Source: Escherichia phage BP32
Sequence record: OR906198.1
Strand: one strand, 5' to 3'
Length of the DNA: 64,000 nucleotides
Position numbers and translations under genes: made by a program. Positions 234 to 42,501 of the stretch are shown here, piece by piece; the first letter of the stretch is position 1; each line of letters begins with the position of its first letter. Below the pieces are notes generated by a model. The model had not been told where the DNA came from and ran no database searches. It worked only from the letters and a program-made list of their open reading frames with translations.

Positions 234-1935
<1,702 letters not shown>

Positions 1936-1947
1936 TTAAAATCCTTT

Positions 1948-1963
1948 GGGGCCTTGCGGCCCC
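1948..1963 (-). other. GC-rich hairpin in wac-13 intergenic spacer
   Basis: GGGGCC-TTGC-GGCCCC perfect 6-bp stem (GNRA loop on transcribed strand); no U-run follows, so more likely a stability or processing element than a terminator. Confidence 0.35.
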
Positions 1964-1966
1964 ATG

Positions 1967-3424
1967 TTATGCTGGTGATAAAAAGGTAGAAAGTAATACC
2001 CATTCGCCGTCTTTACGAACGTAAGCTTGGCCATCTTTTGGAGCTTCAGGGATATAACCTGCTTCCTGTAAAGTCTGAACATCCCCCTGTAATGAAGATA
2101 CATTACTTTTAATACTACGCATTTCTTGATTAATAGAAGAAATGTTAGTTTCATTAGCTTTTATTGAATTAGTTAATCCGCGCTCTTCTACTGTTGAACC
2201 ATTTGGATTTGTGCCGCTTACTAGTTTATTTAGTGCAACAACTTGGCCTTTAATTCCAGTAGTGTTATTACCAATTTCAACTTGTAAGTTTTGAACATCA
2301 TTGTTCAGTCTATTAACTGAAGTTTCAACAGTTGAAACCCTATTTAAAAGAGACCCAGGAGGAGAAGGCTGACCTCCACTAGAATCAGTTCCAACGATTT
2401 GGTTTAGCCATGAAACGTTTGCTCGTAGTCCAGATGAAGTGTTTTCACCAACAATTCCATTTAAAAACTCAATTGATGTGGTATTATCTTTAATTTGACC
2501 TTTAATACTAGAAGGAATATCATCTGAGCCAATCGACGTTTCAATGACAGTCAATCGTTGTTTAATACCTCCGCTTTTATTTAGTTCATCATTTAAAGCT
2601 GAAATTTCTTGTGTATTAGTGTTAACATCTGTGATTATTGAAGTATTTCCTGGATATCCAATAGAAGTTTTGATAGATTTAATTTCGGAACTAAGATTAA
2701 TTTGAGATTGATCTAAATTATGCACACGTGAATATATGCTTTCACTGAATGAAGATGGTCTTTGTCCAAGTTCTTGTCTAAGATTTCCGACTTCAATTGT
2801 CAGTGAACCTACATCAGATTCAATAAATTTTTCTTCCAAATCACTTAGACGTATTCCTTGGGAAGTTATAGCATCTGTATTATTAATGATGCGGTGCTTC
2901 ATACCCGTGCTGCTATTTCCTACAACAGGAAGACCATTAATGTCTTGCCCAGCATATTGTCCTAATTCCCTTTTAATCCATAACAAATCATTTCTAATCG
3001 TTCTATAAACTGAATTTGCTTGCGAATTAAATGGACCAATATCAGAAAGAATATTATCAACCGTAGTATTTGTACCATTTAATATATCAGTATGTTCATT
3101 CGTGAGTGTCTTTAAATTTGATATATCATTTTTATTAACACTGATCTGTGATAGCGCTTCTATATCTCCTGATACATCTAAAATGCCTTGAATGGTTTTA
3201 ATATCTTCCTGAGATGTTTCAATGGCAGTTTTAAGAATTCCTACATTTTCGTCGAGAACCTCGACATTTTTAAACACAGAAACAGTTGGTCTATTCATTG
3301 ACCCATCGTTTCCATACTTAGTACTAGCTCCTAATATTTCTTCACCATTTTTAATCCATGAAATACGTTCCTGACCTTCGCCAGGAACGCTATCAACAAA
3401 AGGTAACTCTTTTAATTCAATCAT
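1967..3424 (-). CDS. wac: fibritin (whisker antigen control)
   Basis: 485 aa; C-terminus [30 protein letters not shown] is the fibritin foldon; long segmented coiled-coil body. Confidence 0.95.
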
Positions 3425-3433
3425 TTGTAATCC

Positions 3434-4984
3434 TTAGTAATGAATTTTAATAATATAGTTTAATGATATATTCCATGGTCTAGTTTCATAACCAATTAAT
3501 CCTTCACGATTAAGTGTACCAAGGGCATCTCTCGGTCCACCCAATTCAAATCCATCATTAGTGAAGTATGAAGCATTATCCCAGTCGGAATATTTTCTAG
3601 TTCCAAGATATCCTTGATAAACGGACGCGCCAAATGGAGCTTCATGTCTTTGGTATTCTCCCCAACCACCAGCGTGTTTATGGTATGACATTTGTTGTGC
3701 CTGAACACCACCAACATGCATTCCGTCACATCCTACGCCAAGTCTATCCTTCCCATAACCATCTTGTCCACGTTGATTTAAAATATGACCGCCCGTGCCA
3801 GCTCCTCTAACAAAAAGACCTCTCATATCAGGAATCCCTGGATTATTCCAATCACCACCAAATCTTGCTCCAACCGTGTTTCTATAATCAGGATATTGAT
3901 CTCCTGACACGGTTCCGCCGTGGCACATAACCCAACCCGGAGGTGCTGAATCACCTGCAAACATCATAATAGTTCCAACTGGAACTCTTTCGGACGCATA
4001 TCTTTCAGTGGCAACAGGTTGATCGCCATTTTTCCACATTCCGCCGCGCGACCAAATTCCGTTTGCTGTAAGATGGTCTAAATTTAAAGAACCATTAATA
4101 GTTTGTCCACCACGAGTATTAATTACATCTGCGTTCCATGCTAATGCACCAGAGCTATCACCTTCAGGGGCAATACCGGCTTGCGTCGTTAATTTAACTA
4201 CTCCGCGCATAGAACCAGTAGCTCCTCGACCATTTAGTGTTTCACCTGTTACTGCAACATCTCCCAAATTACTGTTAATTTCTGATTGTGTTCCTAAACG
4301 TATAACACCCTTATATTCTTGTGTTGCAACAGAATTCATAAAGGTATACGGAGAAATTGCATATCCTTCGCGGAGAGTTCCTTGACGAGTTTGCGCAACA
4401 GTAGATAATTGAACTACACCTCTCACAGATTCTGATGCAGTATCTTCGGAAGGAGCTATTTGTGAAATTAATTTTATTGCAAGTTTTTGTGTTTTTAATG
4501 GAGTCATTGCCGTAGTATCATCAACTCCAGCTAAAGCTGCAGGTGTAGATGATATTTTAATAACCCCGTTTGATGACTCAGACGAATATCTATTTTGGAA
4601 CACATCGTCAGTGTGGTATTTCAGTTTTTGCGGCGTTATTGATGAATTATTATCTGAACCTTCTAATGTTTCTTCATTTGTTGAATAACGCGTTAAACCA
4701 TATTTAGTTTCAGTAGCATTTGGATACAATAATCTTGTTGCTAATGTAGCTGGTGTAACGATTTTGGAATTATTAGTTCCATCTAAAACCTCTTGCTCTG
4801 ACGCAATCATTGCTATTCCTTTAACTTCCATAGTTGCATCAGGAATACCATTTACGCCGATATTACTTATTTTTGATAATGCAGACTGCACTGTCGTGAC
4901 AGTGTCAGGAAAATTCGATCCTGCAGGATCGAATTTAACATATTTTGATTCATTTGATACGTGCTGATATGTATTGTTACTCAT
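3434..4984 (-). CDS. 12: gp12 short tail fiber
   Basis: 516-aa ORF between wac and 11, T4 gene order; ATGA overlap with gene 11 stop. Confidence 0.9.
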
Positions 4985-23015: not shown

Positions 23016-23102
23016 GCGAGAATGGTCAAATTGGTAAAGGCACAGCACTTAAAATGCTGCGGAATGATTTCCTTGTGGGTTCGAGTCCCACTTCTCGCAC
23101 CA
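23016..23102 (+). tRNA. tRNA-Leu (anticodon UAA)
   Basis: 7-bp acceptor GCGAGAA/TTCTCGC, anticodon loop cuUAAaa, long variable arm, T-arm GGTTCGAGTCC, encoded CCA. Confidence 0.85.
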
Positions 23103-23107
23103 AATTT

Positions 23108-23181
<74 letters not shown>

Positions 23182-23191
23182 ATTTAATTTA

Positions 23192-23265
23192 CTCCGTGTA
23201 GCTCAGTTTGGTAGAGCGCCTGATTTGGGATCAGGAGGTCCAAGGTTCAAATCCTTGTATGGAGA
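23192..23265 (+). tRNA. tRNA-Pro (anticodon UGG), no encoded CCA
   Basis: anticodon loop uuUGGga, T-arm AAGGTTCAAATCCTT; 3' end lacks CCA; 2-nt spacer to tRNA-Ser. Confidence 0.8.
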
Positions 23266-23267
23266 CT

Positions 23268-23354
23268 GGAGGCGTGGCAGAGTGGTTTAATGCACCGGTC
23301 TTGAAAACCGGCAGTCGCTCCGGCGACTCATAGGTTCAAATCCTATCGCCTCCG
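23268..23354 (+). tRNA. tRNA-Ser (anticodon UGA), no encoded CCA
   Basis: acceptor GGAGGCG/CGCCTCC, anticodon loop cuUGAaa, long variable arm, no CCA. Confidence 0.8.
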
Positions 23355-23361
23355 TAATTTC

Positions 23362-23437
23362 GCTGATTTAGCTCAGTAGGTAGAGCAACTCACTTGTAAT
23401 GAGAAGGTCGGCGGTTCGATTCCGTCAATCAGCACCA
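23362..23437 (+). tRNA. tRNA-Thr (anticodon UGU)
   Basis: acceptor GCTGATT/AATCAGC, anticodon loop cuUGUaa, T-arm GGTTCGATTCC, encoded CCA. Confidence 0.85.
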
Positions 23438-23438
23438 A

Positions 23439-23515
23439 GGCCCTGTAGCTCAATGGTTAGCAGCAGTCCCCTCATAAGGGAAAGGTTACCAGTTCAAATC
23501 TGGTCTGGGTCACCA
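23439..23515 (+). tRNA. tRNA-Ile (anticodon CAU; Met alternative)
   Basis: anticodon loop cuCAUaa, T-arm CAGTTCAAATCTG, encoded CCA; one U-U mismatch in acceptor stem. Confidence 0.7.
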
Positions 23516-23524
23516 AATTAATTA

Positions 23525-23611
23525 GGGGAGTTATCCCGTAGAGGTAGCGGTGTGGACTGTAAATCCATTGTCATTGCGACTCGGGTGGTTCGACTCCACC
23601 ACTCCCCACCA
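23525..23611 (+). tRNA. tRNA-Tyr (anticodon GUA)
   Basis: acceptor GGGGAGT/ACTCCCC, anticodon loop ACTGTAAAT as in bacterial tRNA-Tyr, long variable arm, encoded CCA. Confidence 0.8.
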
Positions 23612-23657
23612 ATTTATGACTCGTCGTGAGACGCTCAGTTCTTTATTAGGGACTGAT

Positions 23658-24323
23658 ATGCATTTTTATCTTTATAAAATAACAAATAAAATTAATAATA
23701 AAATTTATATTGGTGTGCATTCTACCGAAAATTTAGATGATGGATATATGGGTTCTGGTAAATTATTAAAAAGAGCCCAAGATAAGTATGGTATAGAAAA
23801 TTTTTCTAAAGAAATATTAGAGTATTTTGATGATAAAGAATCTATGCTTGAAGCCGAGAAAAATATTGTCACAGAAGAGTTTTTAAATAGACCAGATGTG
23901 TATAATTTAAAACTTGGCGGTGAAGGTGGATGGGACCATATAAATATTCCTGGGATGCTAAACCAGAAGAAAGATGCTAGCTTAAAAGGAGCTAAATCGT
24001 TTAAATCACGTTTTGAAAATGATATTTTACTTCAAGAAAAATATCGTAAAATTGGTTCAAATGTATTTAAACGTTTGTGGTCAACTCCTGAATACAAGGA
24101 AAAATTTTTAAATAATAGCAGATTTTTAAATAAGCATCATACTCCTGAAACTATTAATAAAATGAAAGAAATTCACGCTAAAAATAATCATCAGAAAGGA
24201 GAAAAGAATTCCCAATTTGGTATGATGTGGATTCATTCATTAGATGAAAAAGTTTCTAAACGTATTAAGAAAACTGACCCAATTCCAGAAGGATGGTTTA
24301 AAGGTCGAAAAATGAAATTTTAA
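23658..24323 (+). CDS. segB: GIY-YIG homing endonuclease SegB
   Basis: 221 aa from ATG 23658 (ORF track start 23550 would overlap tRNA-Tyr); GIY-YIG motif YLYKITNKINNKIYIGVHS; embedded in tRNA cluster. Confidence 0.8.
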   Translation: MHFYLYKITNKINNKIYIGVHSTENLDDGYMGSGKLLKRAQDKYGIENFSKEILEYFDDKESMLEAEKNIVTEEFLNRPDVYNLKLGGEGGWDHINIPGMLNQKKDASLKGAKSFKSRFENDILLQEKYRKIGSNVFKRLWSTPEYKEKFLNNSRFLNKHHTPETINKMKEIHAKNNHQKGEKNSQFGMMWIHSLDEKVSKRIKKTDPIPEGWFKGRKMKF

Positions 24324-24326
24324 TTA

Positions 24327-24402
24327 CGGGGCATAGCTCAGAAGGAAGAGCAAGGACCTTCTAAGTCCTAGGTCGTAGGTTCGATCCCTACTGCCTCGAC
24401 CA
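24327..24402 (+). tRNA. tRNA-Arg (anticodon UCU)
   Basis: acceptor CGGGGCA/TGCCTCG, anticodon loop cuUCUaa, T-arm GTAGGTTCGATCCCTAC, encoded CCA. Confidence 0.85.
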
Positions 24403-36195: not shown

Positions 36196-36489
36196 ATGGC
36201 CTTAAAAGCAACGGCACTATTTGCCATGCTAGGATTAGCGTTTGCTTTATCTCCACCAATTGAAGCGAATGTCGATCCTCATTTTGATAAATTTATGGAA
36301 TCTGGTATTAGACATGTTTATATGCTTTTTGAAAATAAAAGCGTAGAATCATCTGAACAGTTCTATAGTTTTATGCGAACGACCTATAAAAATGACCCGT
36401 GCTCTTCCGATTTTGAATGTATAGAACGAGGCGCGGAGATGGCACAATCATACGCTAGAATTATGAACATTAAATTGGAGACTGAATGA
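36196..36489 (+). CDS. rI: lysis inhibition regulator RI
   Basis: 97 aa with N-terminal signal-anchor (MALKATALFAMLGLAFALSPPIEA); T4 RI length and position near tk. Confidence 0.8.
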   Translation: MALKATALFAMLGLAFALSPPIEANVDPHFDKFMESGIRHVYMLFENKSVESSEQFYSFMRTTYKNDPCSSDFECIERGAEMAQSYARIMNIKLETE

Positions 36490-36872
36490 AATTCAGCGAC
36501 TTTTCACAAAGTGGAAAACCTTCAAAGGCAGATGAATATTTAGGTTTATTAATGGCTGCGCAAGCTTATTTTCATTCTGCGCATTTTGAAACTAAAAGTT
36601 ATGCTAGACACAAAGCATACGATTTTATTTTCTCTGAGTTGCCAGATTTGATTGACAAATTTGGTGAGCAGTATTTGGGGTATTCTGGTAGAAAATACAC
36701 ACCTTCAATTCCAGATGCTAGTAAACTTCCTACCGACACAATTAAAATGATTGATCGTATACTAGACCAATCTAACAGCATTTATAAAGAAATGCCTCCA
36801 GCCATTCAAAGCACGATAGATGATATTACTGGGATGTTTTACCAGAGTAAATATCTTCTTTCCCTCGAATAA
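36486..36872 (+). CDS. hypothetical protein (rI-adjacent)
   Basis: 128-aa ORF, ATGA-coupled to rI. Confidence 0.6.
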
Positions 36873-36876
36873 CATT

Positions 36877-36899
36877 AGTCTCCTTCGGGAGACTTTTTT
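36877..36899 (+). terminator. intrinsic terminator
   Basis: AGTCTCC-TTCG-GGAGACT stem-loop followed by TTTTTT. Confidence 0.7.
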
Positions 36900-36910
36900 C
36901 ATTTTACCGG

Positions 36911-36939
36911 TTTACTTTCCATTTGAGCTGTGATACTAT
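36911..36939 (+). promoter_or_regulatory. T4-type early promoter
   Basis: -35 TTTACT, 17-bp spacer, -10 TACTAT. Confidence 0.65.
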
Positions 36940-36967
36940 ACAACCATCGGATAAAGAGGAGAACATC

Positions 36968-37156
36968 ATGAAAATTGAAGCACTCAATCAAGAAGGAAAT
37001 ATCTACGTCATCATTAATGGTGATTTTTTCGTCGACATGGATGAAGTTACTAGTGAAGAACTTGTAGAACTTCTTAAGAAACGTTATGATATGTGTGATG
37101 AAGCTGCAACTCACATGGCGTGTGCAATATTCTCTCTTTCATATGTGGTGGAATAA
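36968..37156 (+). CDS. hypothetical small acidic protein
   Basis: 62 aa from ATG 36968 behind AAAGAGGAGAA RBS. Confidence 0.5.
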
Positions 37157-37359
37157 TGATTAGTATTGAACAAGCAGATAAAATTAAAGAATTGGTAGCT
37201 TTAATTCGCAAAGCAGATGAGGAACTTAGTGACTTTGCTTGGTTTTCGTCAGGCATTGCAAATAAAGGTATTGAAGAATTTGAAGCTAAAGTTGATAATG
37301 CTGTAGAAGCTTTAGATATGTTTCTTGATGAAATTATCGATCACAATACGAGAGTTTAA
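37156..37359 (+). CDS. hypothetical small protein
   Basis: 68 aa from ATG 37156, TAATG coupling. Confidence 0.5.
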   Translation: MISIEQADKIKELVALIRKADEELSDFAWFSSGIANKGIEEFEAKVDNAVEALDMFLDEIIDHNTRV

Positions 37360-37361
37360 GT

Positions 37362-37556
37362 ATGCTGACACACGAACAGTTTGAAAAAATCATTAAATTA
37401 GCACGTGATGTTGAAATAGATTCATATCAATTAGCAGTTGAGCACTGTGAAGGATATTCATACGAAGGTATAGCAGCAGCTAAAAAGGATTTGGATAAAT
37501 CTAAAGCTAAGTTAGTTCAATATCTTGAAATGATTAGGTGGAATAATGAAAACTGA
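37362..37556 (+). CDS. hypothetical small protein
   Basis: 64-aa ORF. Confidence 0.5.
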   Translation: MLTHEQFEKIIKLARDVEIDSYQLAVEHCEGYSYEGIAAAKKDLDKSKAKLVQYLEMIRWNNEN

Positions 37557-37719
37557 AAAGCAGATGTTTTTAATGAAGCTAATTGAAGAATATGCTAATG
37601 CAGTTTCTGACTATGAGTATTCTGCTCGGGAAAGAGGTACAGCTTTCGCAAAGGAAGAAATGAAAATCATGGTTGATGCTCACACAAAACTCCAGAATTT
37701 TATTGAAAACGTCATTTAA
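37546..37719 (+). CDS. hypothetical small protein
   Basis: 57-aa ORF (below ORF-track cutoff) overlapping previous stop. Confidence 0.4.
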   Translation: MKTEKQMFLMKLIEEYANAVSDYEYSARERGTAFAKEEMKIMVDAHTKLQNFIENVI

Positions 37720-37722
37720 TGG

Positions 37723-37751
37723 TTTACAAGTTGGCAAGGTTATGGTATAGT
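37723..37751 (+). promoter_or_regulatory. T4-type early promoter
   Basis: -35 TTTACA, 17-bp spacer, -10 TATAGT with TGG extension. Confidence 0.6.
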
Positions 37752-37779
37752 AATCTTGTCAACTGTCAAGGAGAAGAGA

Positions 37780-37884
37780 ATGAAAGTTTTGTTTGTTGTG
37801 TATGTGATGATTCAATATAATTACCCAATGTTTACTTATAATCTGGTGAACAACATTATTGATATTATTCAAAGGAGTATGTAA
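37780..37884 (+). CDS. candidate 34-aa hydrophobic leader peptide
   Basis: ATG 37780 behind AAGGAGAAGAGA RBS; MKVLFVVYVMIQYNYPMFTYNLVNNIIDIIQRSM; its 3' end carries the RBS of the next gene. Confidence 0.35.
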   Translation: MKVLFVVYVMIQYNYPMFTYNLVNNIIDIIQRSM

Positions 37885-37886
37885 TT

Positions 37887-38441
37887 GTGAGTGAGTCGAA
37901 GAGAATCAATATGAAACGATTAGTATTAGAAGTTAGTCCGCTTTTTGGTGAATTGGCTATAGAAAAAGTAAATAACATGTATCGTTTGACGCAAGAAGAC
38001 GATATGCTATATTTTACGCCTAGTGAAATCATTCATTTAACCCAAATTGAATATCCTTATACCGATAAAATAGTAAGCATCAATGATGAGCATAAAATTC
38101 ATTTTTGTTCTTTATGCTCGGGATTTAGTATTAAAAGTGAGTCAATATGCTTATCAATTGATAATTGGGATAATTTTATAACTAAGATTAAATATTTTTA
38201 TTATTCTAATGAAAGGAAACATAGTTTAAAATGGTTTAAAAAATGTAATGCTATTATTACTAACACTTGCAATCAGAACGGTGAAACTATTTTAAACGTA
38301 TCAAAATGTTATGAAGATGGAGATGTCTTAACTATTCGTCAATCGGTAAATGATGTTAATGTTGTTGTATTAAACAAAGAAGAAGCTGTTTTATTAAAGA
38401 CTTATCTTGATTCTGTCATTCCAACTATGATTTCAAAGTGA
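37887..38441 (+). CDS. hypothetical protein, paralog of 38448 product
   Basis: 184 aa (GTG start 9 nt after AAAGGAG; alternative ATG 37911); C-terminal region aligns with the next ORF. Confidence 0.6.
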   Translation: MSESKRINMKRLVLEVSPLFGELAIEKVNNMYRLTQEDDMLYFTPSEIIHLTQIEYPYTDKIVSINDEHKIHFCSLCSGFSIKSESICLSIDNWDNFITKIKYFYYSNERKHSLKWFKKCNAIITNTCNQNGETILNVSKCYEDGDVLTIRQSVNDVNVVVLNKEEAVLLKTYLDSVIPTMISK

Positions 38442-38447
38442 GGAAAT

Positions 38448-38969
38448 ATGTTTATTTCAAGTGGAAGTGGTTTAATTCGTGTTGAATTTAAAAATGACAT
38501 CTTCCTTATTCAAGGAGATGATATTATTAAAATGAGTTATGACGAAATCAAGAAAATTTGTCACGCTCTTGAAAGTCATGGAAAGGAAAATGCTACTATC
38601 GATATAGGTGATTTATGGGTAACGCTTTATGAAGTATCCGAAGGATTTAACATTGAAGATGAAAATAACATTTTAGCTATTGATAAAAGGACCGATTTGT
38701 TTGATGTGTTAAAAGTTTATGAACAGTCAAACGGTGGAAGAAAAGCCGTATTGATTTATCAAAAACCGCATTCATGTGGAACTGCTTCAATCATTTCAAA
38801 TATTGAAGATGAAACTGATACCTATATGTGTGTTTTGAAAGCTGGTGGTGACCGTCATCCGGATTTTATTTCTATTCGTCAAAACAATGGAGAAATTTCA
38901 TTATCAAAATCAGAAGCTGAAGCTATGATTAAGTATTTAACAACTGTTACACCTTCAATGAAAGGATAA
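38448..38969 (+). CDS. hypothetical protein, paralog of 37887 product
   Basis: 173 aa behind GAGGAAAT RBS; shares C-terminal pattern with upstream ORF. Confidence 0.65.
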   Translation: MFISSGSGLIRVEFKNDIFLIQGDDIIKMSYDEIKKICHALESHGKENATIDIGDLWVTLYEVSEGFNIEDENNILAIDKRTDLFDVLKVYEQSNGGRKAVLIYQKPHSCGTASIISNIEDETDTYMCVLKAGGDRHPDFISIRQNNGEISLSKSEAEAMIKYLTTVTPSMKG

Positions 38970-38971
38970 TT

Positions 38972-39418
38972 ATGATTATTAATGAAAACTCTTGGCACGT
39001 TCGTATGCATGATTTCTTTTACTGGCAGCGTCCGAATTCTTTGTGTAAATATTTCTGGAAAATGGCGTGGACGTTCTTAGTTATCGGTGTTATTTGCACA
39101 TCGGGGCTATTAGGTAGTTGGGTGGTAGGACAAGCTATTTTAAGTCAATTTGGTGTTACAGGATTCTGGCTTCTACATGCAGGCGGAACCGTATTTGGTG
39201 TACTGATATTTGCTACGATTGTCATTATTGCAGTAGGTATAGCATATATTGTAGCTAAGATTTCAGGTTTATGGGAAGGAGTCAGGTATGATAGAGCGTG
39301 GAAGCGTCAACAAGACGAAGAAAACGGTATTGAACATCCTAAGAGTGTAATCGTTGAATACCTTAAAGCTAGTAAATCTAAAATCTGCCCTATGATAGAA
39401 TTTAAGGATGTTAAATGA
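38972..39418 (+). CDS. small membrane protein
   Basis: 148 aa with 2-3 predicted TM helices; ATGA-coupled to next gene. Confidence 0.65.
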   Translation: MIINENSWHVRMHDFFYWQRPNSLCKYFWKMAWTFLVIGVICTSGLLGSWVVGQAILSQFGVTGFWLLHAGGTVFGVLIFATIVIIAVGIAYIVAKISGLWEGVRYDRAWKRQQDEENGIEHPKSVIVEYLKASKSKICPMIEFKDVK

Positions 39419-40425
39419 AAACAGTAATGAAAAGCTATTTTGGTAGTCATCTTTATGGAACTTCTACTCCAGAATCTGATGTAGATTTCAAAGAAATCTT
39501 TGTTCCTCCTGCTCGCGACATTCTTATCGGAAATGTTAAAGAGCATATGAGTAAAAACACTAACAACACATCATCTAAAAACACTAAAGATGATATTGAC
39601 CATGAACTATACAGTCTTAAGTATTTCTTTAAATTAGCAGCAGATGGTGAAACTGTAGCATTGGATATGCTCCATACTCCACCTGAACTGGTAGTTAAAT
39701 CTGATTTGCCTGATGTATGGAAGTTTATTCAAGACAATCGTTCTCGTTTTTATACGACTAACATGAAATCCTATTTAGGATATGTCCGCAAGCAAGCTTC
39801 TAAATACGGTGTCAAGGGTTCTCGTTTGGCTGCATTGCGTGATGTATTGAAAGTAGTTAATCAAATCCCTGATCAGTGGGTTGATTATCAAGAAGACGGT
39901 TCCATTAAGCAACGTCGTACTAAAGTTGAAGATATTAAGCATCGTCTTCCAGAGAACGAGTTCTGTGAATGGGTGTTCCATAATCACGAGAAAACAGGCC
40001 CGCAAACGTTCTATACTGTGTTGGGTCGTAAATATCAGACAACGCTTTCTCTTATTGAGCTTAAGCAGTCACTGAACAAATTAGATGCTGAATACGGCGA
40101 ACGTGCTCGTAAGGCTGAAGCGAATGAGGGCATTGACTGGAAAGCTCTTAGTCATGCTTGCCGTGGTGGACTCCAACTATTGGAAATTTACAAAACTGGT
40201 GATTTGGTTTATCCACTCCAAGATGCTCCATTTATTCTCGACGTGAAGTTGGGTAAACATCCATTTAAAACTGTTCAAGAGTTTTTGGAAGATGTGGTCG
40301 ATCAAGTAGAAGCAGCATCCATTGAAGCTTCTAAGAACGGTATGCAGCAAAAAGTAGACATGAGTTTCTGGGATGACTTCCTTGAGAGGGTTTATCTTGA
40401 AAACCACCGAAGTTATTATAAATGA
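39415..40425 (+). CDS. predicted nucleotidyltransferase-fold protein (Pol-beta superfamily)
   Basis: 336 aa; N-terminal G-S-x9-S-D-V-D (FGSHLYGTSTPESDVDF) fits hG[GS]x9-13Dh[DE]h; candidate third acidic residue in VALDML. Confidence 0.6.
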   Translation: MKTVMKSYFGSHLYGTSTPESDVDFKEIFVPPARDILIGNVKEHMSKNTNNTSSKNTKDDIDHELYSLKYFFKLAADGETVALDMLHTPPELVVKSDLPDVWKFIQDNRSRFYTTNMKSYLGYVRKQASKYGVKGSRLAALRDVLKVVNQIPDQWVDYQEDGSIKQRRTKVEDIKHRLPENEFCEWVFHNHEKTGPQTFYTVLGRKYQTTLSLIELKQSLNKLDAEYGERARKAEANEGIDWKALSHACRGGLQLLEIYKTGDLVYPLQDAPFILDVKLGKHPFKTVQEFLEDVVDQVEAASIEASKNGMQQKVDMSFWDDFLERVYLENHRSYYK

Positions 40426-40428
40426 TAA

Positions 40429-40452
40429 GGGAGCCTTCGGGCTCCCTTTTTT
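40429..40452 (+). terminator. intrinsic terminator
   Basis: GGGAGCC-TTCG-GGCTCCC stem-loop followed by TTTTTT. Confidence 0.7.
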
Positions 40453-40477
40453 ATTTCAAAAATTTTTCATAAAACTG

Positions 40478-40506
40478 TTTACAAGCATAAAGCTTTATGG
40501 TACTAT
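40478..40506 (+). promoter_or_regulatory. T4-type early promoter
   Basis: -35 TTTACA, 17-bp spacer, -10 TACTAT; conserved GGTACTATACAACTATCAACT leader. Confidence 0.7.
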
Positions 40507-40540
40507 ACAACTATCAACTGATACGGATTTGGAGAATAAA

Positions 40541-41509
40541 ATGAAAACTGTAACTATCAATAAAGGTATCTACTTCGGTAAAGAAATCTCTGGAACTTTT
40601 GAGCTCTTAGGCGAATGGTTCCCAGATAATGCTCCGGTAGATGCACAAGGAGATGGTAAAGTTTTTGTTGAAATTGACGGTAAACGTCGCGGTGTTTGGG
40701 TTTACAAATCAGATATTTCATATGATGGTGTAAAAGTTGAAGAAGTTAAAGAATCATATGAAGATATGAAAACCCGCATTAATAAAAGATTTAATGTTAT
40801 GGGAATGATGACGAATGGTATTATTAATGGAAATATTCGTTCATTAATTATCTCTGGCGCAGCAGGTATTGGTAAAACGTATTCTTTAGATAAAGCTTTA
40901 AATAAAGCAAATGATATTGGATACATTGAATATAAAAGCATTAATGGTAAAATCTCTGGTATTGGTCTTTATGAGCAGCTTTGGAATAATCGTGAAGAGA
41001 ACTCTGTCCTTTTGATTGATGATGTGGATGTTTTCTCTGATATGGACATTCTTAATCTTCTGAAAGCTGCTCTGGACACTGGAGAGACCCGTAAAGTCTG
41101 CTGGAGCACTGCATCTTCTTACTTAGAAGAAAAAGGCATTGACCGTGAGTTTGAATTTAAAGGAACGATTGTTTTTATCACAAACGTTGATATTGACCGC
41201 GAATTAGACCGTGGTACTAAACTTGCCCCACACTTACAAGCATTAGTGTCCCGCTCAGTTTATTTAGATTTGGGTGTTCACACTAATGAAGAAATTATGG
41301 TCAGGGTTGAAGATGTTATTCTTTCAACCGACATGATGCAAAAGCGCGGTCTTTCTGATGAAGAAACTTATAAAGCATTATCATGGATGAAAGTTAATGT
41401 TAATCGTTTACGCAATGTTTCACTGCGTACTGCTCTTTATCTTGCTGACTTTATTATGACCGACAAAAACGGTTGGGAAGAAATTGCTGAGGTTACTCTT
41501 CTGAAATAA
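40541..41509 (+). CDS. P-loop ATPase (AAA-like)
   Basis: 322 aa from ATG 40541 behind GGAGAAT RBS; Walker A ISGAAGIGKTYS, Walker B VLLIDDVD, sensor-1-like FITN. Confidence 0.7.
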   Translation: MKTVTINKGIYFGKEISGTFELLGEWFPDNAPVDAQGDGKVFVEIDGKRRGVWVYKSDISYDGVKVEEVKESYEDMKTRINKRFNVMGMMTNGIINGNIRSLIISGAAGIGKTYSLDKALNKANDIGYIEYKSINGKISGIGLYEQLWNNREENSVLLIDDVDVFSDMDILNLLKAALDTGETRKVCWSTASSYLEEKGIDREFEFKGTIVFITNVDIDRELDRGTKLAPHLQALVSRSVYLDLGVHTNEEIMVRVEDVILSTDMMQKRGLSDEETYKALSWMKVNVNRLRNVSLRTALYLADFIMTDKNGWEEIAEVTLLK

Positions 41510-41610
41510 TTCATAAGAGGACTTCTATGACAAAAAGGCAGTTCAGAAATAGATTATATGGACTGCCATTAAAAAGATGACTAGAATTAAACTGGTGAAT
41601 GGAGGTAGTG

Positions 41611-41913
41611 ATGTTATACTCAAAGGCTCGTGAAATTTACGAAACTAAAATTAAAGAAGCAGTATTTCAATTCGCAACGACAATGCGATGGACAAATGAC
41701 TGGGAGTATTCAAAAAATCATAAGAAGCCCATGGTGACAAGAAAGGCTCATATGTTAGTGTTAATAGACCGTGAGCAGATTAAAGCCCGAGAAGCCCTCC
41801 AGAATCATAAAAAGGCTGCCTTTGAATGGTTTATGGATAATACTGCTCCTGAGACTAAGAAAGCGGTAAGTGCATGGTTCAGTGGAAAAAATTGTGAAAG
41901 AAGTTTCTTTTAG
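41611..41913 (+). CDS. hypothetical protein
   Basis: 100 aa from ATG 41611 behind GGAGG RBS (ORF track start 41599). Confidence 0.5.
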   Translation: MLYSKAREIYETKIKEAVFQFATTMRWTNDWEYSKNHKKPMVTRKAHMLVLIDREQIKAREALQNHKKAAFEWFMDNTAPETKKAVSAWFSGKNCERSFF

Positions 41914-41916
41914 TTG

Positions 41917-41945
41917 TTTACAAGACTGTTCCTCTGTGGTACTAT
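41917..41945 (+). promoter_or_regulatory. T4-type early promoter
   Basis: -35 TTTACA, 17-bp spacer, -10 TACTAT; same conserved leader. Confidence 0.7.
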
Positions 41946-41973
41946 ACAACTATCAACTACGGAGGAACAGAAA

Positions 41974-42501
41974 ATGAACGCTAAAGATATTTTCAACTTG
42001 GTAAATTACAACGATGGTAAATTTAAATCTGAAGCACAAAGCAAGTTCTTTAACGACATCTCAATCGGAGGTGAAATCACTGTTGATGGAGGACAAATTT
42101 ACAAATCCCGTTGGAATTGGATCGTTATTATTGATGAGATCGGTATTGTAGAAATTTACAAGAATACGAATAAAAATAGTACATTACACTGGTCTCGTGA
42201 TACTAACGAACAGTACAAAAAGGATAAAGCATCTAAATTATCTCGTGTAACTCAAGAAGATATTGAGTTCATCAAGAAAGATATTTTAATGTATGATAAC
42301 TTAATTGCTGAAGAGCAAGCTGTTATTGATAAATTTGACGAGATTAAAGCTTCTCGTGAAATTCCTGATTTTATGAAAGAATCAGTAAATGAACGATACA
42401 CTCTCATTTCAGAGCGTATTGAAACTTACAAAAAGCAAAGAGCTGAACGCCAAAATACTCTTCGGAAGTTTGAAGAACGGTTAAAGACGGTACTCGCATA
42501 A
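41974..42501 (+). CDS. hypothetical protein with C-terminal coiled coil
   Basis: 175 aa from ATG 41974 behind GGAGGAACAG RBS. Confidence 0.6.
   Translation: MNAKDIFNLVNYNDGKFKSEAQSKFFNDISIGGEITVDGGQIYKSRWNWIVIIDEIGIVEIYKNTNKNSTLHWSRDTNEQYKKDKASKLSRVTQEDIEFIKKDILMYDNLIAEEQAVIDKFDEIKASREIPDFMKESVNERYTLISERIETYKKQRAERQNTLRKFEERLKTVLA

Follow-up and report, generated by a model that had tools for sequence, protein, structure and literature searches.

Among the described enzymes close to the system treated here are the RlaP proteins, nucleotidyltransferases (NTases) of the Pol-beta superfamily. Two RlaP enzymes of Pseudomonas add one or two nucleoside monophosphates (NMP) to the 3'-OH of damaged RNA, and RlaP helps to restore the function of tRNA that is short of a nucleotide (bioRxiv 10.64898/2025.12.29.696909). 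The NrdC.11 protein of phage T4 has been placed in the same family, in cluster 5 of a sequence similarity network (SSN), as an uncharacterised member (bioRxiv 10.64898/2025.12.29.696909). A second point of reference is Pur-alpha, the sole known protein that joins an intramolecular type I domain to a third repeat forming an intermolecular type II domain (PMC7549692). Here we describe an operon of Escherichia phage BP32, located in a stretch of 64,000 nucleotides (record OR906198.1) that is referred to below as the window, in which nrdC.11 is the last of five genes.

These five genes, mobD.2 - mobD.1 - mobD.1 paralog - phrog_944 membrane protein - nrdC.11, constitute a T-even early operon, and every element that a first-pass annotation of the same DNA had claimed is present, with coordinates that are exact or at most one base off. 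All of them belong to catalogued families (Pfam, PHROGs), and hundreds of T-even genomes list them as hypothetical genes; BP32 adds a rare allele of the membrane gene and a minority C-terminal variant of MobD.1. A literature search found no functional papers on mobD.1, mobD.2 or the membrane protein. We propose, with a probability of roughly 35%, that the operon provides a membrane-anchored accessory to RlaP RNA-end repair or counter-defence, with its components acting through a joint mechanism.

The five-gene early operon

The BP32 window belongs to a Tequatrovirus (T4-like) genome. A megablast search with positions 37700-39500 returned 501 phage records at 90-95% identity, nearly all of them Tequatroviruses of Escherichia, Shigella and Yersinia, and the annotated relatives SholemSchwarzbard, AR1 and T4 give the order of the early region as tk - rI - rI.-1 - mobD.5...mobD.2a - five-gene unit - nrdC.11 - nrdC.10, where nrdC.11 is the last gene of the unit. 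Early transcription follows the + strand of the window. The features of the operon are these:

37722-37751, + strand: predicted early-type promoter (sigma-70, extended -10), GTTTACAAGTTGGCAAGGTTATGGTATAGT; consensus scan, 10/12 with TG
37780-37884, + strand: mobD.2 homolog, a hydrophobic/amphipathic peptide of 34 amino acids (aa); phrog_3515, E=6.5e-22
37887-38441, + strand: ortholog of MobD.1 (T4 Y05I), 184 aa with a GTG start (176 aa from an alternative ATG at 37911); Pfam, phrog_1502 (E=1.4e-70) and synteny
38448-38969, + strand: second y05I-family paralog, 173 aa, isoelectric point (pI) 4.8; Pfam and phrog_1502
38972-39418, + strand: inner-membrane protein, 148 aa; phrog_944 (E=3.4e-43), hydropathy, conserved N- and C-terminal motifs
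39415-40425, + strand: NrdC.11, RlaP-family (Pol-beta superfamily) NTase, 336 aa; PF10127 at 43.9 bits (cutoff 23), phrog_388 at E=1e-136
40427-40455 (hairpin 40427-40448), + strand: intrinsic terminator from a terminator scan, with a 9-bp GC-rich stem, AAGGGAGCC-TTCG-GGCTCCCTT, and a T run

The promoter has the form GTTTAC-N18-TGgTATAGT and is the top sigma-70 match within 36400-42000. It is kept in T4, AR1 and other Tequatroviruses, and Moon-like phages have a GTTTAC...TGaTACTAT version of it upstream of their counterpart of mobD.2. The terminator follows directly 3' of the NTase stop, and the annotation of phage JB75 has one at the corresponding position. Neither a late motif (TATAAATA) nor a MotA box was found inside the unit, and Rfam and repeat scans of the operon region returned nothing relevant. 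Because there is a single early promoter at 37722 and a closing terminator, with a new early-type promoter (40477-40506) ahead of nrdC.10, the five open reading frames (ORFs) are predicted to be one early transcription unit, read by host RNA polymerase; the first-pass annotation had put the early promoter at 37723.

The similarity between the 184-aa and 173-aa proteins had been noticed in their C-terminal 25 residues, and it turns out to extend over their full length: BLASTP aligns 174 residues with 25% identity (E=1e-8), and both proteins contain both domains of the family, T4_y05I_N (PF24449) followed by T4_y05I_C (PF24448). The two domains were required in this order and at the Pfam gathering cutoffs of 24.9 and 27 bits, respectively. 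The 184-aa protein (pI 5.8) gives E=1.3e-37 and 128.8 bits for the N domain and E=1.4e-16 and 61.1 bits for the C domain, while the corresponding values of the 173-aa protein are E=1e-32 and 113.1 bits, and E=2e-23 and 82.9 bits. Judged by these alignments, the pair are tandem duplicates of one phage-restricted family. The orthology of the 184-aa protein to T4 MobD.1 is given by synteny and alignment; its C-terminal variant is SVNDVNVVVLNKEEAVLL, and some annotations start it at ATG 37911.

When 1.84 billion representative proteins were searched exhaustively with HMMER, only 30 clusters of the y05I family came up, of which about six are full length and many are stand-alone C domains of 65-87 aa; the family is thus confined to T4-like phages. 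A metagenomic protein (P0011) is a natural hybrid of a MobD.1-type N domain and a 173-aa-type C domain, which suggests that the tandem paralogs have recombined. In another (P0053) the N terminus of MobD.1 is fused to the C-terminal part of NrdC.11, a deletion variant without the rest of the module. The two paralog ORFs of BP32 share a reading frame (37887-38966), with only TGA GGA AAT between them. The 173-aa paralog also has a sub-threshold DUF7189 match at residues 16-38, and the Jiaodavirus counterpart of mobD.3 matches Pfam DUF7189.

Replacement of two of the genes in T4

T4 has direct orthologs of mobD.2, mobD.1 (Y05I) and nrdC.11, with the same promoter, terminator and order, and in AR1/RB32-type phages the 173-aa ORF is AR1_101 and the 148-aa ORF is AR1_100. 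In contrast, T4 is without the second paralog and the membrane gene, and carries the HNH homing-endonuclease gene mobD between mobD.1 and nrdC.11. In blastn the homology with T4 extends up to 38466 and resumes at 39414, at the start of nrdC.11, and T4 retains the opening 19 nt of the paralog ORF, ATGTTTATTTCAAGTGGAA (38448-38466; ~57283-57208 of the T4 record, reverse strand). This 19-nt remnant indicates that a mobD cassette of ~0.8 kb took the place of positions 38467-39413 of the window, that is, of the paralog from codon 7 onwards and the membrane gene. In an IMG/VR locus (L010) a 79%-identical mobD homolog lies between an intact membrane gene and nrdC.11, so that the insertion site of mobD is visible there without the deletion.

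Since T4 keeps a scar of the paralog and L010 has mobD beside an intact membrane gene, the BP32 arrangement is the ancestral one; it is also the usual one in Tequatrovirus, with T4 as a derived exception, and the 173-aa paralog is present at >=80% identity in ~433 phage records. T4 is thus the wrong model for this module: mobD replaced two of its five genes, and work on T4 cannot reveal its function. All five are present in phages such as AR1, RB32 and T6.

Gene neighbourhoods across phages

Loci were collected with a profile of the y05I family (13 loci) and one of the membrane protein (38 loci, including IMG/VR pattern scans), and were annotated with custom hidden Markov models (HMMs). The Tequatrovirus order is mobD.2 - y05I - y05I - membrane - RlaP - nrdC.10, an arrangement found in ~430 sequenced phages. 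A second group of T4-like phages, of ~170 kb, has a single y05I gene (184-186 aa) followed by the membrane gene and RlaP, with the ATGA overlap between the latter two kept. In Moon-like phages, Jiaodavirus and others, one or two stand-alone PF24448 proteins (68-87 aa, E ~1e-24) precede the membrane gene, and 0.4-1.2 kb of other genes separate the latter from RlaP. Gene order is, then, conserved in relatives of several genera.

The y05I C domain lies immediately upstream of the membrane gene throughout the T4-like groups, with one contig (L041) and the Aeromonas phages as exceptions, and in those groups no gene ever stands between the two, though the surrounding content varies. As this adjacency is maintained across genera, even where the C domain is a protein of 68-87 aa on its own, a membrane-associated functional unit is plausible. 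In this respect the first-pass suggestion of one functional, possibly membrane-associated unit is partly supported, a joint function being a hypothesis. In the exceptional contig (L041, IMG/VR 651703001, 159.8 kb; 1596-4399) two phrog_944 paralogs flank RlaP and no y05I domain was detected. The upstream neighbour in the Aeromonas phages was considered as a distant y05I_C and rejected (hhalign probability 0.1%).

Outside these groups, Pakpunaviruses carry the cassette Metallophos_2 - x - HTH_37 - membrane - RNA_lig_T4_1 - AAA_33 kinase - phosphoribosyl pyrophosphate (PRPP) synthase - NAMPT. On one contig (L054) a HAD_PNKP phosphatase gene comes directly after the membrane gene (E=3e-25), and on another (L053) the gene that follows it encodes a Pol-beta-like protein (phrog_24943). 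The membrane gene therefore recurs beside RNA-end-processing enzymes (Rnl1 ligase, PNKP phosphatase, RlaP/Pol-beta) in unrelated phages. The presence of one membrane protein beside three classes of RNA-end-healing and -sealing enzymes suggests that some step of RNA repair or counter-defence in phages is linked to the membrane.

In Pseudomonas phage vB_VIPPAEUMC02a (L017, 1443-5264) the membrane gene is part of an apparently complete RNA healing-and-sealing cassette, adjoined by the PRPP synthase and NAMPT genes for the salvage of nicotinamide adenine dinucleotide (NAD). On a further contig (L058) an NAPRTase-family gene lies one ORF downstream of it.

The membrane protein

Kyte-Doolittle hydropathy identifies two hydrophobic segments in the 148-aa protein, at residues ~30-52 and ~62-98; the two tails carry positive charge, and the loop that joins the segments carries none. 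A topology with two transmembrane (TM) helices and cytoplasmic N and C ends is favoured on these grounds, with three TM helices possible, in agreement with the two or three that had been predicted. The protein matched no Pfam, NCBIfam or PADLOC family, and matches of the protein and its relatives to the oleosin and holin families were rejected as sub-threshold noise due to composition.

In an alignment of 11 sequences the N end (M.IN.NSWH...LC.YFW) and the basic C tail ([YF][IL]KA[RK]K.K.CP.I.F) are conserved, and the hydrophobic core between them varies. M1, I3, A133, K135, K137, C139 and P140 are invariant, and W8, H9, L24, C25, Y27, F28 and W29 nearly so. A word-indexed search with the protein returned just two near-identical ones. 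Homologs were found by tblastn in 1071 phage records, seven of them >95% identical and all others <60%; the records comprise T4-like phages of Escherichia, Klebsiella, Aeromonas, Citrobacter and Enterobacter, and ~90-kb Pseudomonas Pakpunaviruses. Between BP32 and AR1 the membrane proteins are 32% identical, in a setting where rI.-1 and MobD.2 are 100% identical, the 184-aa protein 82%, the 173-aa protein 97%, NrdC.11 98.8% and NrdC.10 99%. By this comparison allele replacement or diversification is sharply concentrated in the membrane gene, and its conserved termini could serve as recombination arms. The AR1 gene compared is at 4276-4737 of its locus, and Tequatrovirus seems to have at least three classes of allele in circulation (~148, 150-153 and 154 aa).

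A scan of bacterial genomes gave one homolog only, in a metagenome-assembled genome (MAG) of Candidatus Saccharibacteria (L060, 4983-5399), with uninformative neighbours. It keeps the SWH...LC and KAKKEKYCP motifs and adjoins murB and genes for lipoproteins; the 4.5 kb inspected contained no phage genes.

The fold of the y05I proteins

A structure of the y05I protein was predicted with AF2 from an alignment of 23 sequences, with a mean predicted local distance difference test score (pLDDT) of 77 and values of 85-91 across most of the N domain. The model consists of three ββββα units, and includes the paired repeat units that characterise the PUR/PC4-like (Whirly-like) fold. Repeats I and II are predicted to form one PC4/Whirly-like domain, which would leave repeat III as a half-domain in need of a partner. 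Homology between the repeats is weak in sequence (repeat 1 against repeat 3, E=0.003; no signal for the other pairs) and is not relied upon. Stand-alone C domains with a single repeat occur, sometimes two in tandem. The viral fold library BFVD contained, as matches, only members of the y05I family and a few weak PC4-like phage proteins.

NrdC.11 and the proposed role of the operon

NrdC.11 of BP32 is near-identical to that of T4, and its Pol-beta motif is intact (GS...DVD at residues 10-24; FGSHLYGTSTPESDVDF at residues 9-25). By analogy with the characterised members of its family, the likely role of the enzyme is to add nucleotides to damaged RNA 3' ends. Neither the operon nor the ~3 kb flanking it on each side contains an RNA ligase gene, and the ligase neighbourhood to which RlaP owes its name is thus not seen here. 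RnlA and RnlB are encoded elsewhere in T4-like phages.

The mechanism that we propose is the following. The acidic y05I proteins would pair through repeat III, each paralog either with itself in a homodimer or with the other in a heterodimer, and their C-terminal domain would dock on the basic cytosolic tails of a membrane protein with two TM helices. Docking is suggested because the charges are complementary: all 23 aligned y05I members are acidic (pI 4.1-5.8), and the C tails of the membrane proteins have a pI of 8.9-10.1. The resulting inner-membrane complex would cooperate with NrdC.11, an enzyme expected to extend damaged RNA 3' ends by one or two nucleotides, and would act early in infection as an accessory to RNA (probably tRNA) repair or as an anti-ribotoxin counter-defence. 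The variable core of the membrane protein may reflect an arms race or frequent allele exchange, and mobD.2 would encode an independent small protein, its translation being coupled to that of whichever gene comes next. Under this proposal NrdC.11 gains candidate conserved partners that could explain its substrate targeting or its localisation.

A bolder version, which we consider unlikely, holds that a y05I_C protein, phrog_944 and RlaP form a module of large lytic phages that has so far escaped recognition and that, anchored in the membrane, repairs RNA damage or counters ribotoxins, that its membrane component has been recruited independently beside Rnl1 ligases, PNKP phosphatases and Pol-beta NTases, and that its hypervariable TM core marks an arms race with a factor of the host or of a competitor. 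If such a counter-defence system were true, it would be a new component class in the RNA-damage conflict between phage and host.

Several observations weigh against a joint mechanism. T4 survives the loss of its segment from nrdC.11 to mobD.3 (PMC9825161), which makes the module dispensable in the laboratory, and the absence of two of the five genes from T4 means that NrdC.11 is not strictly dependent on the paralog or on the membrane protein. The C domain of the y05I model reaches only moderate confidence (pLDDT 57-79), and a structure model of the membrane protein from three sequences, a single long helix with a pLDDT of 55, was uninformative and was not used. The acidic charge of the y05I proteins argues against their binding RNA themselves. 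Searches of PDB sequences with the 173-aa paralog, NrdC.11 and the NTase-like protein of contig L053 gave no matches, and neither did the PADLOC models for six proteins; PADLOC holds models of host defence only, and has little bearing on counter-defence. In Aeromonas T4-like phages an unrelated gene precedes the membrane gene and there is no RlaP within 4 kb, and on two contigs (L044 and L046) the membrane gene comes after a GmrSD_N protein. Finally, T4-like genomes are broadly collinear, and synteny within Tevenvirinae may be a matter of inheritance, not of function.

Many of these observations would be expected if the five were unrelated accessory genes, sharing a transcript through genome compactness and collinearity, and if the variable core of the membrane protein came from tolerance and recombination. 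This explanation is somewhat unlikely in our judgement, and is the main rival to the proposed module. It accounts well for the ATGA overlap between the membrane gene stop and the NTase start (39415-39418), which the first-pass annotation had read as coupling within a functional unit. The overlap is there, and its meaning was overstated: 4-nt overlaps occur at 5 of the 18 same-strand junctions of this region in the AR1 annotation, and an arrangement so common is weak evidence of a functional link. Moon-like phages and Jiaodavirus have 0.4-1.2 kb of other genes at this junction. The entire tk-rI-mobD-nrdC region is collinear among relatives, T4 does without two of the genes in a region that can be deleted, and outside Tevenvirinae the membrane gene occurs in diverse contexts. 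What a set of unlinked genes does not explain is that the adjacency of y05I_C and the membrane gene persists while the neighbouring content turns over, and that the membrane gene stands beside three or four families of RNA-end-processing enzymes in unrelated phages, which is unlikely to be due to chance as these enzymes are rare in phages. Moreover, 32% identity amid a background of 97-100% needs more than relaxed constraint.

The charge of the y05I proteins bears on another explanation, in which they and the membrane protein target the host envelope or host proteins instead of RNA, in superinfection exclusion, the blocking of a membrane-bound abortive-infection effector or interference with cell division, and NrdC.11 is a mere neighbour. 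Nucleic-acid binders of this fold (Pur-alpha, Whirly, MRP) are basic, unlike the uniformly acidic y05I family, and the SsgA/SsgB branch works via protein contacts. The Whirly-like proteins SsgA and SsgB of actinomycete cell division, which act by such contacts and with a membrane partner, thus offer a precedent; nevertheless, their structural match to y05I is far weaker than that of Pur-alpha, and no sequence similarity and no link to cell division were seen. The several highly divergent core alleles of the membrane protein in one genus resemble the pattern of immunity and exclusion genes, and the PHROGs category of phrog_944 is 'moron, auxiliary metabolic gene and host takeover', but the protein has no homology to known exclusion, immunity or holin families. 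This explanation also leaves the recurrence beside RNA ligase, PNKP phosphatase and RlaP genes unaccounted for, and we regard it as clearly unlikely.

It is improbable that the y05I proteins are DNA-binding transcription factors that reprogramme early host or phage transcription, the membrane protein and the NTase being separate from them. This notion comes from the Pfam description, 'y05I-like putative transcription factor', and from a fold that is common to Pur-alpha, PBF-2 p24 and PC4-like factors; the gene upstream of the membrane gene in Pakpunavirus, which encodes an HTH_37 DNA-binding protein, is in line with it. The Pfam label is doubtful, since it is based on fold similarity only and the family is strongly acidic, especially in the PUR-like N domain (pI 4.0-5.6). 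No conserved basic motif was found among the invariant y05I residues, and with its 30 clusters the family is very small and limited to T4-like phages.

The micro-ORF mobD.2

The first gene of the operon had been taken for a leader peptide, and it has some features of one: it is short, it stands right behind the promoter, and a strong ribosome-binding site (RBS), AGGAG, lies 6 nt 5' of its start. Its stop is 2 nt short of the start of the 184-aa ORF, whose RBS is inside the last codons of the micro-ORF. The micro-ORF is nonetheless the annotated T4 gene mobD.2. The Tequatrovirus peptide, MKVLFVVYVMIQYNYPMFTYNLVNNIIDIIQRSM, has 31 of its 34 residues the same as in T4 MobD.2 and is 100% identical to that of AR1. 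Counterparts were found in Jiaodavirus (MRNVLLIIYIVVQYQHPMFTYNLVQMILESLK, 32 aa) and in Moon-like phages (MKSLVVVAYLYVQYNNPLFTRNVIDFIWSQL, 31 aa), and a core, QY(N/Q)xP(M/L)FT(Y/R)N, is kept across the three genera, with codons that differ synonymously at conserved residues. The gene that follows is not always the same: in Jiaodavirus a gene for a zf-DksA/TraR protein comes directly after the micro-ORF, and Moon-like phages have ~1 kb between the micro-ORF and the y05I_C genes. Where loci of Tequatrovirus and Jiaodavirus were checked, the stop of the micro-ORF either overlaps the following start or lies directly against it. The RNA at 37755-37930 folds no better than shuffled sequences (minimum free energy of -28.8 against a shuffled mean of -30.7 kcal/mol, z=0.60), with no attenuator-like structure.

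Taken together, the conservation of the peptide with synonymous changes, the presence of other genes downstream elsewhere and the lack of RNA structure lead us to conclude that the micro-ORF is probably a small protein gene and not an attenuator leader. A regulatory leader peptide that controls the downstream genes by attenuation or stalling, for which a conserved nascent-peptide arrest motif is the form that still comes into consideration, is on this evidence very improbable.

The surrounding region

A search of the window for GTTTAC-N13-18-TGnTAnnnT gave 12 matches on the + strand (21016, 21346, 25241, 26134, 29606, 32714, 36910, 37722, 40477, 41916, 44896 and 52572) and none on the - strand. 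T4 early promoters are expected to lie all on one strand in this manner, and the twelve matches look like a map of early-type promoters over the window. Upstream of the operon, four small ORFs (57-79 aa) between 36923 and 37719 correspond by position to mobD.5, mobD.4, mobD.3 and mobD.2a. Downstream, the mechanical ORF of nrdC.10 (40373-41509, 378 aa) runs across the terminator and the next promoter; the gene itself almost certainly begins at ATG 40541 (322 aa), like its AR1 counterpart, and the protein has weak matches to AAA/STAND-type P-loop families. Rfam locates eight tRNA genes on the + strand at 23016-24399, clustered in a T4-type tRNA region.

Comparison with known systems

The useful leads to emerge from this locus are the replacement by mobD, an architecture that resembles Pur-alpha but has the 'wrong' charge, and a membrane protein associated with RNA repair; the last two can be set against systems that have been described. 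The bacterial RlaP operons (RtcB-RlaP-RtcA, or RlaP with 5'-phosphate RNA ligases) have the NTase family PF10127 in common with the phage operon. They differ in that the phage operon is without an RNA ligase, RtcA or RtcR and has instead PUR-like proteins, a membrane protein and a micro-protein, and T4 NrdC.11 lies apart from bacterial RlaP in its separate sequence cluster 5. The Pakpunavirus cassette shares with BP32 the membrane-protein family, including its N- and C-terminal motifs, a small gene that overlaps the start of the membrane gene, and an RNA-end-processing enzyme downstream; it differs in having HTH_37 and not y05I upstream, a ligase and not RlaP downstream, and another phage lineage and host. 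As for Pur-alpha (PDB 3k44), the y05I model has the same three-repeat layout, which the Pfam division into N and C domains fits, whereas sequence identity to y05I is 11% and the phage proteins are acidic where Pur-alpha is basic. If the model is true, the combination of a type I PC4-like domain and a type II half-domain, known so far from Pur-alpha, would have y05I as its second type of protein only.

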